From Ignavibacteriota bacterium (GTDB taxonomy: Bacteria; Bacteroidota; Ignavibacteria; UBA10030; UBA6906), in contig CAVPCZ010000012.1 of the NCBI GenBank assembly GCA_963702445.1, positions 78,668-142,667 on the forward strand: a DNA stretch of 64,000 nt, read 5' to 3'. This document shows positions 32,628 through 36,541 of the stretch, piece by piece; position 1 is the stretch's first letter, and every line of letters starts with the position of its first letter. The notes beneath the pieces are model-generated. The model was not told the origin of the DNA. It saw only the letters and a program-made list of their open reading frames with translations, and searched no databases. A program made the translations under genes and the position numbers.

Positions 32628-34280
32628 GCGATCCACTTCGATTGAGTGGTGCGGCCACCGCGTGCAGAAAACGCGCGACAGAGCGTTTGTACTGGCTTTC
32701 GTCGGGTCCGACGGCATTCCGGCCGACGATCACAACAAGCTGATTGACGGGGTCGACTCGAAAAACCGCTCCGGACGCCGCCTCATGGCCGAAGGTGGAA
32801 TCGCTCAACCCGTTCCCCCCGAGAGGGGCGCAGCCGATACCCCAGGATTTGTGCAAATCACTCCCGCCGAAATGCAGCGGTTGGGGAATGAGGGCGCGGA
32901 AGGCTTCGCCGGAGAGGATCTGATACTTTCCGTACGCGCCCCGGCCCAGAAGCATCTGACCGAAACGGGCAAGATCCGCGGCCGGTGCGTAGAGCCCCCC
33001 GTAGGTATTGTCCGCAAAGGAACGGTCCATGCCAAGCGGAGTCAGGATCATCCGTTGGAAAAGGTGCGGAACAGTCTGCCCGGATATGCGCTCAAGCACC
33101 TTGCTCGTGAGTGCGTAGCCGGCGCGATGGTACTTGAATGCACGGCCGGGCACCACGTAGGGAAGCGCCTGCGCCATCTGATTCTCCAGCGACGGGTTCC
33201 AGTCCGATGCCCATTCTCCCGCCCACGAGAGACCGCTCGTATGCGTAAGAAGATGACGGAGCGTGAGCACACAGGGTGTTCCGGAAGACATCTCCGGCAG
33301 ATAGCGGTCGAGTGGAGCGTCAAGATCGACCAGGCCCCCGTCGACGAACTGCATGACCAGCACTCCGGTCATCAACTTGGTGATGGAGGCCATCCAGGTG
33401 GGCGTGGAATTGCTCATCCGGCTGCCGTCGGCGGCGGTTCCGAACGATTCGTGGAAAACGACAGTCCCCTTATGGACAACGAGTGCGGTCATAGGCTGGC
33501 CGGAGCTGTCGGTCCAGGCGGAACAGATCTCCCGCAGAAGGCGGATATCTGCAGAACGGTACGGAGTGACCGGCGACGCAGCCTTCTCCTGAAGAACCGG
33601 CGCGGTGTCTGCGAGCCTCCGGACATCGGGGACCAGACCCGGCTGTTCCGGCCTGGAAAGCCGGCGTTTGAATTCGAGCCACCATTGCCGGTCACGGAGG
33701 CGGGGCGTGTCCGTCGGATCTCCGCCGGGACGGTGTTCGGAAAGACCGGAGAGAAAAATCGCCGCATCGGCATTCTGCCGGGGAAACATCATCAGGCTGC
33801 CAAACGAGAATTTCCTCAGGGAACGTTCATAGCTCTGCCACTGTGCCTTCGAAACCCCCAACCCGGGAAGGGACTCTCATCATGATGGGAACGTCCGGGC
33901 TATAGTCGTCCAGGTAGGCATCCGAGCAGTAGAGCGTGATGAAGCGGACGACTTCGAAACCATCCGAGGTTCTTCCGCGGACGACAGCCCCATAACGGCC
34001 GGTGTGTTCCGCCCGTGTGACGCGTGCGTATGTGTGATCGAAGAATTCAACAGTGAGCGGCAGTGCACCCGCATAGCGTGCCACCGTCTCCGGCCTCTTC
34101 CAGTCGATCGAAGGAAATGGTCCGCGGGGAAACACATACCGGTCGCACTCCAGCTCTTCCGCCAGAAAAGCTCTTGACACGGGCCTGACGGCCGGCCATA
34201 GAGGAATCTTCACCGGGCCGTTCTCCGGCATGCGCGGCGGAAGAAACCAGAAGAAGAGCGGCACACAGAAAGATCATCAC
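32620..34280 (-). CDS. Secreted serine hydrolase (beta-lactamase/PBP-like family) with long N-terminal domain (two frameshifts near 34200 and 33865)
   Basis: Signal peptide MIFLCAALLLVSSAAHA; SxxK (MASITK), TLRHLLTHTSGL, FKYHRAGY, DLARFGQMLL. Joins ORFs 34047..34280, 33827..34264 and 32620..33861. Confidence 0.78.
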
Positions 34281-35968
34281 GGCTTTTTCTTCGTCAGGAG
34301 CCAGTCATAGACCGCGGGATCGTTGTACGTCCTCGTCCAGGAGTCGTGATACAGATCCGGATAGATCGTGAACAAGGGATCTCCGCGGCACACTTTAAGA
34401 GCAGTGATCACACTCTGGGCCTTCTCCAGAGGAATGATATTATCCTTTTCGCCGTGGAATCCCCACAGGGGGATATCCTTGATGACGCACAGATCCCAGC
34501 CGGGTTCAATGCGAAAGGCGATGGGCAGAAGCGCGGCAAATCGTCGCGGGTAGCGGATGGCCAGGTCCAGCGTGCCGATCCCGCCCATGCTGAATCCTGT
34601 CAGGTAGATGCGATTCGTATCCACGGGATACCGGACAATGGCACTGTCGATCAGCCTGTTCACCAGGAGCTGAACGCCGTCATTGTAGTACCATTCCGTG
34701 GTCAACGGGCATTGAGGGGAAACAACGATACAGGGGAATGCGGTGTAGCCATCCAGAATCTTGGGAAGCCCGTCCCGTTTCACCCGCCACACGTCGCTTC
34801 CACGCTCATCAATACCGTGCAATGACACCATGAGAGGGAATTTTCCGCCAACCCGTGCCGAAGTATCCCGGGGCATAAACAGAAGATAGTTCAGTGTTGC
34901 GGGGTCGTACACTGCCTGTTGAATGCTGAGTGTGTCGTTGAAACCGGGCTGACCGAGGACAATGTCGGCGTTTGCCCCGTTCGGTTTCGATGCCGCATCA
35001 TGGAAGATCACCACACGATGGTTCGACTCATCCACGAGATACAGCCTCCCCGCCGCGTCGCCAAACACTCCCCGCAGATTGCTTACCCCGTTCCGGGCGG
35101 CGCTCTTCGTGTTCGATGTGAAGTCCGGTTGTCCCAGAACCCCGTCAGCCGCCGCGCCGTTGGCTTTGAATGCTGCGAGGTCGAAGCGCAGCGCGCGGTT
35201 GTTATCATCTTCACACACCCATAAACGGCCCGCGACATCGGCATAGACACCCATCGGCCTGTTCATCTTTGTCGATGCGAGGCCGCTCGTACCCGTCGTA
35301 AAATCCGCCTGTCCGAGGACGCCGTCGGCGTTTGCGCCGTTGGCCTTCGCTGCCGCATTGTCAAACCGCAACACGCGATGGTTGAGTCTGTCCGTGACCC
35401 ACAACCGGCCGCCGCCATCCGCAAAGACGCCGACAGGTCCGTTCATCCTGCCGGCTGTGGTGCCTCCCGTCCGGGTACCGAAATCCGGCTGTCCCAACAC
35501 CCCATCAGCCGCGGATCCCGACGGCTTCGATGAGGCATCGTCGAACCGTAACACCCGGTTGTTGGCATAGTCGCTTACCCAGAGCCGTCCGGAACCGTCG
35601 ACGGTCGCTCTCAGCGGATCGCTCAATTTTGTTGAGGAGAGCCCGCTCGAGCCGGTCAGAAAATCGGCCTGACCCAGCACCGCTTCAGCCGCCGAGCCAT
35701 TCGTCCGTTTGGCGGCCGAGCCCCACCGTAATACGCGGTTATTGTAGCGATCGACAACAAAAAGTTTCCCCGTTGTCGGATCGACCGCCACTCCCGACGG
35801 AGCCTGTAGCGTGTTTGCCGTTGTTCCGGATGTTGCTGTAGTGAAATCCGCATGGCCCAGCACGCCGCTTGCGGGCATATTGTCCGACAGGGGCGGTTGG
35901 CCATACAGTGACGCGCCTGTTGAGGCCATCAGCAGAAATGTCGCAGAGAGCGTCCTGAGACGTTTCAT
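34277..35968 (-). CDS. Secreted NHL-repeat (5 blades) + alpha/beta-hydrolase (carboxylesterase/phospholipase-like) fusion
   Basis: Five VLGQxDF...GRLWVxDxxNxRVLRF repeats; then LHGIDERG, nucleophile GFSMGG, HGEKD, HDSW triad. Confidence 0.9.
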   Translation of the reverse strand: MKRLRTLSATFLLMASTGASLYGQPPLSDNMPASGVLGHADFTTATSGTTANTLQAPSGVAVDPTTGKLFVVDRYNNRVLRWGSAAKRTNGSAAEAVLGQADFLTGSSGLSSTKLSDPLRATVDGSGRLWVSDYANNRVLRFDDASSKPSGSAADGVLGQPDFGTRTGGTTAGRMNGPVGVFADGGGRLWVTDRLNHRVLRFDNAAAKANGANADGVLGQADFTTGTSGLASTKMNRPMGVYADVAGRLWVCEDDNNRALRFDLAAFKANGAAADGVLGQPDFTSNTKSAARNGVSNLRGVFGDAAGRLYLVDESNHRVVIFHDAASKPNGANADIVLGQPGFNDTLSIQQAVYDPATLNYLLFMPRDTSARVGGKFPLMVSLHGIDERGSDVWRVKRDGLPKILDGYTAFPCIVVSPQCPLTTEWYYNDGVQLLVNRLIDSAIVRYPVDTNRIYLTGFSMGGIGTLDLAIRYPRRFAALLPIAFRIEPGWDLCVIKDIPLWGFHGEKDNIIPLEKAQSVITALKVCRGDPLFTIYPDLYHDSWTRTYNDPAVYDWLLTKKKP

Positions 35969-36001
35969 GCTTGCACGGGAACGTTCACGTGAGTGTACAT
36001 G

Positions 36002-36541
36002 CTATTTCATCACGCCCATCTTCTTCACTTCGTATCGGTGCGCAGTGCGGAGGGCATAGAAGTACACGCCGCTCGGAAGATGTGTCGCGTCAAAGGAAAG
36101 CGCATAGCGTACGTCGGCGTCGGCGATTCCGCGAAAGAGCGCAGCCACTTCCTGGCCGAGCACCGTATGGACCGTGACACTTGCCTCTTCCGTGTTCTCC
36201 AGCGCAAAAGTGATTGTTGTGCCGGGATTAAACGGATTGGGATAATTCTGACTCAGGGCATACATCTCCGGCGCTGCGGTGCCGGTTGGCCCGGCAGCAC
36301 CCGTCGGTGATGAGACATCAAACCGCAATACACGGTTGTTGTCGAAGTCCGTCACCCAGATTTCGCCATTCCGGGAATCGACGAAGATGGATTGGGGATA
36401 CGCGAAGCTGCTCGCTGTCGGAGGACCTGCCAGGGTTCCGGTCGGACGCCCTGCGGCTGCCGGCATGTCCTGGGCAATTCCCGGCCGGCCGGCTGTGGAC
36501 AACAGTAGAAGAAGCGCGAGCCATATCGTGTTATGTTTCAT
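36002..36541 (-). CDS. Small T9SS-sorted protein: signal peptide + single NHL blade + CTD
   Basis: MKHNTIWLALLLLLS...; [51 protein letters not shown]...LPSGVYFY...KKMGVMK. Confidence 0.85.
   Translation of the reverse strand: MKHNTIWLALLLLLSTAGRPGIAQDMPAAAGRPTGTLAGPPTASSFAYPQSIFVDSRNGEIWVTDFDNNRVLRFDVSSPTGAAGPTGTAAPEMYALSQNYPNPFNPGTTITFALENTEEASVTVHTVLGQEVAALFRGIADADVRYALSFDATHLPSGVYFYALRTAHRYEVKKMGVMK

Follow-up and report, generated by a model that had tools for sequence, protein, structure and literature searches.

In the 'Velcro' type of beta-propeller closure a chain uses its own N-terminal strand to complete the last blade. Cargo of the T9SS is recognised, and is predicted, by a C-terminal sorting domain (CTD) present in cis. 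Propellers closed by another chain have been described for the eukaryotic complexes Sec13-Nup145C, Sec13-Sec31 and Seh1-Nup85, in which an open beta-propeller accepts a blade from its partner, as set out in PMC3115789, and the wording 'incomplete beta-propeller' is applied to such complexes in PMC8907234. These are cytosolic scaffolds of the WD40 type (6+1) that play no part in secretion and are unrelated in sequence to the proteins analysed here, whereas the present pair is bacterial, presumably periplasmic or extracellular, of the NHL (5+1) or BNR-like (6+1) type, and its donated blade bears a secretion/anchoring domain. Passage of a folded signal-less subunit across a membrane while bound to a signal-bearing one is described in PMC9251779 for the Tat 'hitchhiker' and the peroxisomal 'piggyback' routes; they operate at the inner membrane or the peroxisome with an N-terminal peptide or PTS, and binding does not occur by propeller completion, whereas the present pair would use the outer-membrane T9SS with a C-terminal domain as the signal. 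No case of hitchhiking through the T9SS was found in the literature searched. The nearest systems in composition are T9SS type A cargoes of the same esterase, NHL and CTD families (SP-esterase-CTD of G003 and G388, NHL6-CTD of L035, SP standing for signal peptide), in which passenger and CTD form one polypeptide; in the present case the CTD is placed on a separate chain of 179 amino acids whose sole other folded part is one blade.

The locus lies in a window of 64,000 nt (the whole stretch of DNA analysed, to which all positions refer) from an Ignavibacteriota genome, and both genes are encoded on the minus strand. The large subunit gene (34277..35968, 563 amino acids) encodes a signal peptide, an N-terminal closure strand, five complete NHL units, IVLGQPGFNDTL and then an alpha/beta-hydrolase domain. 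Matches to Pfam comprise NHL (79.8 bits, cut-off 20), Abhydrolase_2 PF02230 (38 bits, cut-off 23) and DLH PF01738 (21.9 bits, cut-off 21), and a search of Pfam and NCBIfam for a sorting domain of its own gave no Por_Secre_tail match. According to the predicted strand pattern, blades 1-5 (residues 43-340, 34949..35842) have four strands apiece, from the first (57-62/69-73/78-82/96-98) to the last (298-303/309-313/318-322/336-338), and the fourth strand is the 'VLG' strand. The first-pass annotation had read 'VLGQ' as the start of blade 6; in this pattern it is instead the fourth strand of the preceding blade. The segment GVLGH near the N-terminus (residues 35-39, 35852..35866) is the predicted outer strand of blade 6; it is left unplaced in the monomer model (pLDDT <50), and residues 25-42 show a pN/pS of 0.188. 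As modelled, the large chain is made of five whole blades and the N-terminal outer strand of a missing sixth.

The esterase domain occupies residues 348-563 (34280..34927), with the catalytic residues Ser460 (34589-34591), Asp509 (34442-34444) and His541 (34346-34348) assigned by conserved columns that are invariant across 10 homologs, the serine lying within GFSMGG. The pN/pS of this part is 0.173. Its matches of known structure include 3doh (E 4.7e-28), 4q82 (5.1e-17) and 3wyd (6.9e-16), carboxylesterases that resemble the C-terminal domain of the large subunit in sequence and differ in the N-terminal partner domain, which in 3doh we take to be Ig-like. Scores against the NCBIfam PHA/PHB-depolymerase models (53.8 bits, cut-off 150; 33 bits, cut-off 107.85) were far too low. 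Family match and triad together place this domain of the large subunit in the carboxylesterase family of the Abhydrolase_2/DLH type.

The small subunit gene (36002..36541, 179 amino acids) encodes a signal peptide, one NHL blade, a linker and a T9SS type A CTD. The putative signal peptide (about residues 1-23, 36473..36541), MKHNTIWLALLLLLSTAGRPGIA, is followed by Q; its basic start, hydrophobic core and small residue before Gln (GIA/Q) are kept in character in 8 orthologs. NHL was matched with 28.2 bits (cut-off 20); Por_Secre_tail PF18962 with 32.6 bits (cut-off 27), at residues 100-175, and TIGR04183 with 35.7 bits (cut-off 23) covered the same stretch within the CTD (residues 96-179, 36005..36256). 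The orphan blade (residues 43-77, 36311..36415), assigned to strands A-C of blade 6 by conservation and by its unit-6 match, has 17 invariant columns among the 8 orthologs. When compared with an unsplit NHL6-CTD paralog, it gave a BLOSUM62 local score of 136 for unit 6 and 38-84 for units 1-5, a difference by which the orphan unit is specifically the sixth blade. Within the small subunit its pN/pS is the lowest (0.163, against 0.377 for the CTD and ~0.74 for the linkers), and by this measure it is under strong constraint. The gene contents proposed in the first-pass annotation, a hydrolase without CTD beside a small gene with signal peptide, blade 6 and CTD, are thus borne out by Pfam, TIGR04183 and the unit-6 score. 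A spacer of 33 nt separates the two genes (35969..36001), in which a sequence scan revealed no terminator-like site.

The assembly contains numerous frameshifts (in the NHL12, LVIVD, beta-lactamase and PorU-like genes), and many of its short CTD open reading frames are pieces of frameshifted genes, so the possibility had to be considered that the split is an artefact of assembly, or that a single recent rearrangement had left both genes broken. Independent public contigs bridge both junctions in the split arrangement, the first in 4 runs of 4 studies and the second in 2 of those runs, and no alternative joins at either junction were reported among them. Co-transcription of the two genes is not shown by RNA-library contigs bridging the locus. 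The same architecture occurs in 11 other assemblies and in hundreds of metagenome proteins, and both reading frames are intact and under purifying selection. Misassembly and a one-off split, both named beforehand among the outcomes that would count against the proposal, are refuted by the conserved loci, the public clusters and the bridging contigs, and the chance left to them is negligible.

The small gene is located directly upstream of the large one, in the same order, in all 12 evaluable loci (the window, L033-L040, L121, L122 and L125; L120 repeats L039 and was not counted), with a spacing of -4 to +33 nt that includes 4-nt overlaps in L035 and L036. Large-type proteins at E<=1e-30 numbered 187; among the best 120, 118 combine NHL with alpha/beta-hydrolase Pfam families, and the PF18962 CTD is absent from all 120, whereas 102 of 104 small-type proteins have it. 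The public data hold at least 118 large-protein and at least 102 small-protein clusters, and for 19 small clusters the longest contig is exactly as long as that of a listed large cluster. Of 401 genomes sampled from the phylum, 5 were found to contain the module, and the query used did not find it in the complete same-genus genome G001; it is accessory. Retention of the split by selection, raised as a possibility in the first-pass annotation, is supported by the 12 conserved pairs and by the strongly constrained orphan blade.

No single polypeptide of this pair holds six blades: five NHL units are found in the large chain and the sixth on the small one, confirming that the propeller is divided between two adjacent genes. 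Completion of the propeller in trans, as had been suggested, was obtained in a controlled complex prediction, in which three runs gave ipSAE values of 0.98, 0.97 and 0.97 and the best of 3 controls 0.00, a score that may reflect likeness to solved six-blade NHL propellers, as halves of split genes tend to pass in this way. In the calibration of the prediction tool the mark is reached by 58 of 80 solved complexes and by 2 of 110 mismatched pairs, counts that hold roughly for these runs, which were made with our own 8-row alignments. At least 78% of contacts agreed among the runs, with a partner pLDDT of 68-70. The predicted interface joins blades 1 and 5 of the large subunit, together with its N-terminal strand, to residues 39-80 of the small one (39-57, 59-80), and the closest pairs are formed by residues 33-37 of the former with 70-74 of the latter (expected error 0.3-0.4 A). 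The donated blade is thus predicted to be flanked by blades 5 and 1 and to be zipped in place by the large subunit's N-terminal strand, a 'Velcro' in trans in which that strand would close onto the strands of another protein.

A second version of the design has been found in a sister clade of the esterase, where six BNR/Sortilin-like blades and the esterase are followed by a small gene composed of a signal peptide, one BNR/Sortilin-like blade and a CTD (G004 locus; intact in L113). Seven clusters of this type were present among the 120 matches listed. The BNR-type small protein aligns to the last blade and CTD of an unsplit protein (E 5e-23) and also to its N-terminus. Each fusion type forms a clade of its own in the tree of esterases, and its sisters are unfused relatives. 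Judged from these architectures and the tree, the same split design has recurred independently with a different propeller type, NHL 5+1 and BNR-like 6+1. There is also an LVIVD-propeller-esterase fusion, L042, with the partner absent from its 8-kb contig and represented elsewhere in that genome only by a remnant without a signal peptide.

Propellers of five blades occur naturally, and the two proteins might not bind at all, the large one being an esterase of the periplasm, or one exported in some other way, whose five blades stay open or close on themselves, and the small one an independent T9SS substrate. The LVIVD fusion lacking a partner would agree with this, and the complex score could then stem from nothing but resemblance to intact NHL propellers. 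On such a reading the stretch of the small protein under the strongest constraint would be a three-strand blade of ~35 residues with no obvious fold of its own, and the conserved N-terminal strand of the large protein would be without a pairing partner in cis; the strict adjacency in all 12 loci and the recurrence with a second propeller type speak against it too, and we regard it as distinctly improbable.

The genome encodes SprA (SprA_N, 199.9 bits, in a frame of 2328 amino acids) and a PorU-like Peptidase_C25 above the cut-off, frameshifted in the assembly, and a C-terminal CTD was detected with a custom HMM in 157 of its open reading frames. With its terminal CTD and a host possessing the machinery, the small subunit bears the sequence marks of T9SS type A cargo. 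Since a relative's esterase carries a CTD in cis, the esterase family itself appears to be T9SS cargo. It is stated in PMC9251779 that the T9SS moves folded passengers, and export of an mCherry-CTD model substrate by this system is reported in PMC10994853.

We favour, with a probability of about 0.6, the reading that the pair constitutes a two-subunit T9SS cargo in which completion of the propeller in trans serves the export or anchoring of an esterase that has no CTD; the association, export and anchoring of the pair are all inferred. Each protein would reach the periplasm by its own signal peptide, the large one offering five NHL blades with the esterase and a spare N-terminal strand and lacking a sorting domain. 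The small subunit is predicted to give the three inner strands of blade 6, inserted between blades 5 and 1, onto which the large N-terminal strand would zip to yield a two-chain six-blade ring. The type A CTD of the small subunit would then bring the folded heterodimer to the T9SS translocon, and the esterase would be exported and either held at the surface through its partner or released. The enzyme thus probably leaves the cell riding on its small partner. In relatives the esterase itself bears the CTD, and what is gained by splitting is not evident; this, like the LVIVD-esterase fusion for which no intact partner was found, is to be set against the favoured reading.

The subunits could also bind for another purpose than co-export, with the small protein acting as a surface dock for an esterase that leaves by vesicles or lysis, or as a periplasmic folding or regulatory partner. 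CTD-less enzymes outside T9SS-bearing cells have been ascribed to outer-membrane vesicles in PMC6247017, and the present data are compatible with either timing of assembly. A blade travelling unpaired would have to cross periplasm and translocon in an unfolded or exposed state; genes set so close together, overlapping by 4 nt in two loci, fit joint synthesis and early assembly, and the T9SS accepts folded passengers. We consider such a role unlikely, if somewhat less so than the absence of any binding. A broader form of the co-export reading, to which we give slightly less than an even chance, treats one blade plus CTD as a detachable 'blade tag' that completes the open propeller of an enzyme, carries it through the T9SS translocon and tethers it non-covalently to the surface; one esterase family would have acquired it on two or more occasions, with propellers that are not related, and it may be a general route missed by CTD-based cargo predictions.

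If the co-export reading is true, the pair would be the first case of T9SS hitchhiking as far as the searched literature goes, and secretome predictions based on the CTD would miss some enzymes. It would give bacteria a parallel to the borrowed-blade propellers known from eukaryotic coats, and the same solution reached with two unrelated propeller folds would be a clean natural example of evolution. As a naturally split propeller that carries a secretion tag, the pair could be made into a tool for surface display. With two small genes that lie side by side and are widespread, the question lends itself to testing.

The origin of the split was formerly ascribed to a swap of 5' halves, in which an NHL6-CTD gene and a gene for a stand-alone esterase would have undergone a reciprocal exchange or the permuted re-insertion of ~1.5 kb, leaving the small protein with the signal peptide of the esterase. 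Part of the argument holds: the rejoined halves correspond to conventional genes, and NHL6-CTD proteins, stand-alone esterases of ~250 amino acids and esterase-CTD fusions all exist in relatives; on reasoning only, excision and re-insertion of a circle could yield either gene order, as in the NHL and BNR types. The exchange itself is not supported. The signal peptides of stand-alone esterase relatives are of the lipoprotein type and contain a Cys, which the small protein lacks there. In two out of three comparisons the N-terminus of the small protein aligned weakly with the beginning of NHL paralogs (signal peptide and 'AQxPLSNNMPA'); the third, within the window, yielded no alignment. The 'TL' dipeptide noted at both junctions is present here (residues 346-347 and 36-37) and is a coincidence of this genome rather than a meaningful mark, as seven aligned orthologs show ...GSDP/IIQQE... 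and other residues at the junction. The split is old, and the orthologs have reached saturation at synonymous sites (pS about 0.8); because of this saturation a breakpoint signature at the DNA level is unreadable and decides nothing. An exchange seems a poor prospect. The alignments suggest that the small gene arose from a propeller-CTD paralog by internal deletion, and that propeller and esterase were fused in a separate event. The probable route is that one propeller-CTD paralog lost its inner blades by in-frame deletion, and that in a second the mature portion of an adjacent esterase took the place of the last blade and CTD.

The neighbouring paralog (36649..39253, minus strand), previously taken as an unsplit six-blade NHL-CTD protein, remains valid as the unsplit reference, with blade 6 and CTD in cis, and is not six-bladed: it encodes a 12-blade (2x6) propeller pair with a CTD, broken by a frameshift in the assembly into reading frames 39253..38078 and 38349..36649. 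Its two halves share 96-98% DNA identity, and intact equivalents are found in L036 (889 amino acids) and, as NHL6-CTD, in L035 (493 amino acids). Downstream of the pair lies a gene for a DUF and a beta-lactamase-family serine hydrolase (32620..34264, minus strand), which belongs to the conserved cluster; it is divided into two reading frames here and is a single one in relatives, and it is followed by ABC permease genes.

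Four genes lie in series on the minus strand: an NHL paralog with a T9SS C-terminal sorting domain (CTD), a small gene of 179 aa (36541..36002), a large gene of 563 aa (35968..34277) whose start is 33 nt past the stop of the small one, and a DUF plus beta-lactamase-family gene starting 13 nt past the stop codon of the large gene. The large protein comprises a signal peptide, five complete NHL units, IVLGQPGFNDTL and an alpha/beta-hydrolase domain; a Pfam search scored NHL at 79.8 bits and Abhydrolase_2 at 38 bits, both above the cut-offs, and returned no Por_Secre_tail. The small protein opens with a putative signal peptide; a short linker then leads to a single NHL unit (28.2 bits), and ~18 further linker residues separate this unit from a T9SS type A sorting domain (PF18962, 32.6 bits; TIGR04183, 35.7 bits). 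Open reading frames and Pfam domains therefore agree with the first-pass annotation, which had described a propeller split between these two genes. Residues Ser460, Asp509 and His541 of the esterase occupy invariant columns of a 10-sequence alignment, and among proteins of known structure those closest to it in sequence are carboxylesterases (PDB 3doh, E 4.7e-28). The database names are generic: "alpha/beta hydrolase-fold protein" for the large protein and "T9SS type A sorting domain-containing protein" for the small one. A scan of 33700-36900 gave no promoter-like site and 3 sites that resemble terminators, where 3.1 were expected, and was uninformative.

Since the assembly contains frameshifts, both junctions of the split were examined using short contigs from public data (four runs, each from a different study), placed on 34100-36800 with at least 90% likeness. 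The NHL-to-esterase junction in the large gene (~34930) is bridged by contigs X1 (34862-35012, 0 differences), X2 (34679-35046), X3 (34818-35084) and X5, from an RNA library (34862-35190), and the signal-peptide-to-blade junction in the small gene (~36433) by X1 (36333-36800) and X2 (36103-36479). No alternative joint was reported at either junction among the contigs of the four runs, and the bridging by independent contigs argues against misassembly, which had been raised as a way in which the split could be spurious. The X5 contigs match both genes in part, with 90-95% likeness, and cannot show transcription in this strain or a joint transcript. The contig depth has a 10-20-fold spike with many loose ends at 36193-36283, the conserved start of the CTD (NYPNPFNP motif), which is due to matches to CTDs of many other genes and organisms, not to this locus. 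Indel errors seem common in the 28-contig assembly. The gene for a PorU-like C25 peptidase (G000:C24:25945-27054) is also interrupted, by 1 TGA and with pieces in different frames, and many short CTD ORFs genome-wide are fragments of longer genes.

The esterase-domain alignment was searched against one genome per species and returned 80 loci. At loci L033-L039 an ORF of ~560 aa has the five-NHL-plus-esterase build of the window, with an esterase 74-77% identical; directly upstream of each lies a small ORF with signal peptide, single blade and CTD, and downstream, as in the window, a DUF/serine-hydrolase gene and an ABC permease. Both genes are present at L040, with assembly frameshifts, and L041 and L044, truncated by contig ends, were left out of the pair count. 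A 401-genome sample of the phylum added four carriers besides the window's genome, all with the small gene upstream (4/4), one of which (L120) repeats L039. The pair thus recurs in the same order at 12/12 evaluable loci, with a spacing from a 4-nt overlap to 33 nt, and the concern that the split form could be a one-off is answered. At the protein level the esterase has 187 matches with E<=1e-30, 309-986 aa in length; among the best 120 of these 187, Pfam NHL together with a hydrolase family occurs in 118 and PF18962 in none. The blade region of the small protein has 104 matching proteins of 152-262 aa, 102 of them with PF18962. For 19 small clusters the longest contig is exactly as long as that of some listed large cluster, an indirect sign of shared contigs. 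The split-propeller module is accessory; it was found in 5/401 sampled genomes of the phylum, and the query used did not detect it in G001, a complete genome of the same genus. Scanning the window's genome for small signal-peptide/blade/CTD ORFs beside CTD-less repeat proteins gave no other clean pair, and most short CTD ORFs met in the scan are pieces of frameshifted genes.

The blade of the small protein is a counterpart of the last blade of an intact propeller: compared with the unsplit NHL6-CTD paralog of L035 (493 aa) its score is 136 for unit 6 and 38-84 for the other five units, and the small protein of L035 shows the same pattern, its best score being to unit 6. Synonymous differences among 8 orthologous pairs are saturated (pS ~0.8) and the lineages are therefore old. 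Over the same pairs the orphan blade has a pN of 0.136 and a pN/pS of 0.163, as low as that of the esterase (0.173) and lower than those of the CTD (0.377) and the linkers (~0.74) of the small protein. The N-terminal segment of the large protein (residues 25-42) is constrained equally to the orphan blade, with a pN/pS of 0.188.

An AlphaFold2 model of the large protein alone, built on an 8-row alignment, was poor (mean pLDDT 55.4, the esterase mostly <50) and was used for the strand pattern only. In this model the blades have four strands each and every "VLG" forms the fourth strand of the preceding blade, therefore the large protein holds five whole blades. The GVLGH at its N-terminus appears as a spare fourth strand without a blade of its own, and the remaining three strands of the sixth blade are predicted to come from the small protein. 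When residues 23-348 of the large and 26-95 of the small protein, each as an 8-ortholog alignment, were submitted to complex prediction, ipSAE values of 0.98, 0.97 and 0.97 were obtained, the best of three controls giving 0.00; in the tool's calibration the mark was reached by 58/80 solved complexes and 2/110 mismatched pairs. At least 78% of contacts are shared between the runs, and the partner pLDDT is 68-70. Confident predicted contacts join residues 23-39, 42-48, 53-62, 69-74, 299-319 and 338-339 of the large protein with 39-80 of the small one. The tightest pairs are 33-37 of the large against 70-74 of the small protein, so that the N-terminal strand of the former is predicted to lie along RVLRF, one of the donated blade's strands, with blades 5 and 1 on either side. 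This would be an intermolecular version of the "Velcro" closure of propellers. The controlled prediction fits the blade where the closed ring expected in the first-pass annotation would have it. Split-gene halves may pass a test of this kind through their likeness to solved intact propellers, so we take the result to indicate compatible pieces rather than proof of binding.

The window's genome encodes SprA, a PorU-like peptidase and 157 ORFs with a C-terminal CTD (custom HMM). The esterase family carries the CTD in cis in the related genomes G003 and G388, where it is T9SS cargo. T9SS passengers are described as folded while crossing the outer membrane (PMC9251779), and the translocon as recognising the CTD and exporting unrelated passengers, e.g. 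mCherry (PMC10994853). The T9SS genes, the cis-CTD relatives, the folded state of passengers and the recognition of the CTD together lead us to propose a periplasmic heterodimer that would be exported via the CTD of the small subunit. The two proteins, predicted to bind, would assemble in the periplasm, the CTD of the small subunit would drive export of the heterodimer, and after export the small subunit might keep it at the surface. For Porphyromonas PorU, CTD removal and lipid anchoring are established. Blade borrowing is described for the eukaryotic Sec13 and Seh1 (PMC3115789) and transport of signal-less partners for Tat and peroxisomes (PMC9251779); a full-text literature search returned no report of either for T9SS. 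A split-propeller T9SS pair would widen the definition of T9SS cargo.

A comparable arrangement occurs with other blades. In the relative G004 the syntenic locus encodes the orthologous esterase (56% identical) joined to BNR/Sortilin-like blades, not NHL, and a small ORF downstream encodes a signal peptide, one BNR/Sortilin-like blade and a CTD. The G004 assembly is rich in frameshifts; both genes are intact in an independent metagenome contig, L113 (85% identical), whose large gene (1100-2593) encodes a 497-aa protein of six blades plus esterase and whose small gene, overlapping the end of the large one, codes for a signal peptide, a single blade and a CTD (PF18962, 32 bits). Among the best 120 matches to the BNR-type propeller the BNR-esterase type of 492-501 aa makes up 7 clusters, all with PF02230 and without PF18962, the remaining matches being mostly longer BNR proteins with CTD. 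The BNR-type small protein aligns to an unsplit protein over the last blade and CTD (E 5e-23) and N-terminus to N-terminus (E 1e-4). This module was not found with this query in the 401-genome phylum sample and is known only from G004, L113 and the 7 clusters. A maximum-likelihood tree of the esterase domain (40 rows) keeps the fusion types well apart: the 11 rows of the NHL type form one clade (support 100/100), as do the 8 rows of the BNR type (100/99), and the BNR clade is sister to a stand-alone lipoprotein form together with the esterase-CTD forms. The same esterase clade also includes fusions to LVIVD, a third type of propeller (L042, 5706-7307, and P0234), which are sister to a stand-alone form. 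The most economical explanation is that the fusions have separate origins and that the design of n-1 blades plus enzyme and one blade plus CTD was reached at least twice. No blade-CTD partner of the LVIVD fusion is present on its 8-kb contig (L042, genome G041). The best small candidate elsewhere in that genome, a 173-aa ORF (L115, 1495-2016) upstream of a DUF/serine-hydrolase gene, has only the last LVIVD strand and a CTD, is without a signal peptide, and may be a decayed partner.

The origin of the split was ascribed in the first-pass annotation to an exchange of 5' halves between two adjacent genes, with both junctions at a "TL" dipeptide, which would have placed the signal peptide of the esterase on blade 6. 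Stand-alone relatives of the esterase carry lipoprotein-type signal peptides with a Cys, which the small protein lacks. The small-protein N-terminus can be aligned weakly, position for position, with the beginning of NHL paralogs in L036 (YAQRSLSSDLPA vs YAQAPLSNNMPA, E 0.001) and L035 (E 0.002); the window's small protein and its own NHL paralog gave no alignment. The "TL" is not conserved in the orthologs. These three observations therefore favour two in-frame deletions among tandem paralogs over the exchange. One deletion would have taken the inner blades out of one paralog copy, giving the small gene, and another would have joined a second copy, now ending with its penultimate blade, to the neighbouring mature esterase, giving the large gene. 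A single-chain intermediate (propeller-esterase-blade-CTD) was absent from the 150 best representatives at 50% identity.

The NHL-CTD paralog (39253..36649, minus strand) is a 12-blade double propeller of two near-identical six-blade units, with halves 96-98% identical in DNA over ~0.8 kb at a spacing of 1110-1111 nt; in this assembly a frameshift near 38078-38349 interrupts it, leaving two ORFs that overlap. The doubling may reflect a recent tandem duplication in frame, or else a misassembled repeat. Beside it, the gene of an LVIVD-repeat protein (39237-41624, minus strand) has its CTD in another frame, readable in ORF 39847..39341, through another frameshift, and is intact in L035 and L036. 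The DUF/beta-lactamase-family hydrolase (32620-34264, minus strand) is read as two overlapping ORFs (34264..33827 and 33861..32620) and is a single ORF in G004 and L033-L040; a frameshift or sequencing indel is the likely cause of its split in the window. Its DUF (33827-34264, minus strand; motif ...YVFP.G.FP...GRYGAVV...TLY...) precedes the beta-lactamase domain and is fused directly to the esterase family in many representatives of other lineages (P0286, P0338, P0357 and others; 28% identical over 95 residues to P0357, E 4e-10), a fusion that links the esterase functionally with its downstream neighbour. A paralogous esterase of the same genome (G000:C16:86521-90126; L004 1477-2616), 37% identical, is fused to an N-terminal repeat region of ~170 residues, MORN/YwqK-like by eye, and shows that this esterase often gains N-terminal partner domains. 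The conserved neighbourhood also includes a sugar-type ABC transporter, made up of two permeases with their solute-binding protein, and a ribokinase-like kinase (29590-32717 and 41572-42519, minus strand), which gives a hint of an esterified carbohydrate as the substrate of the esterase.
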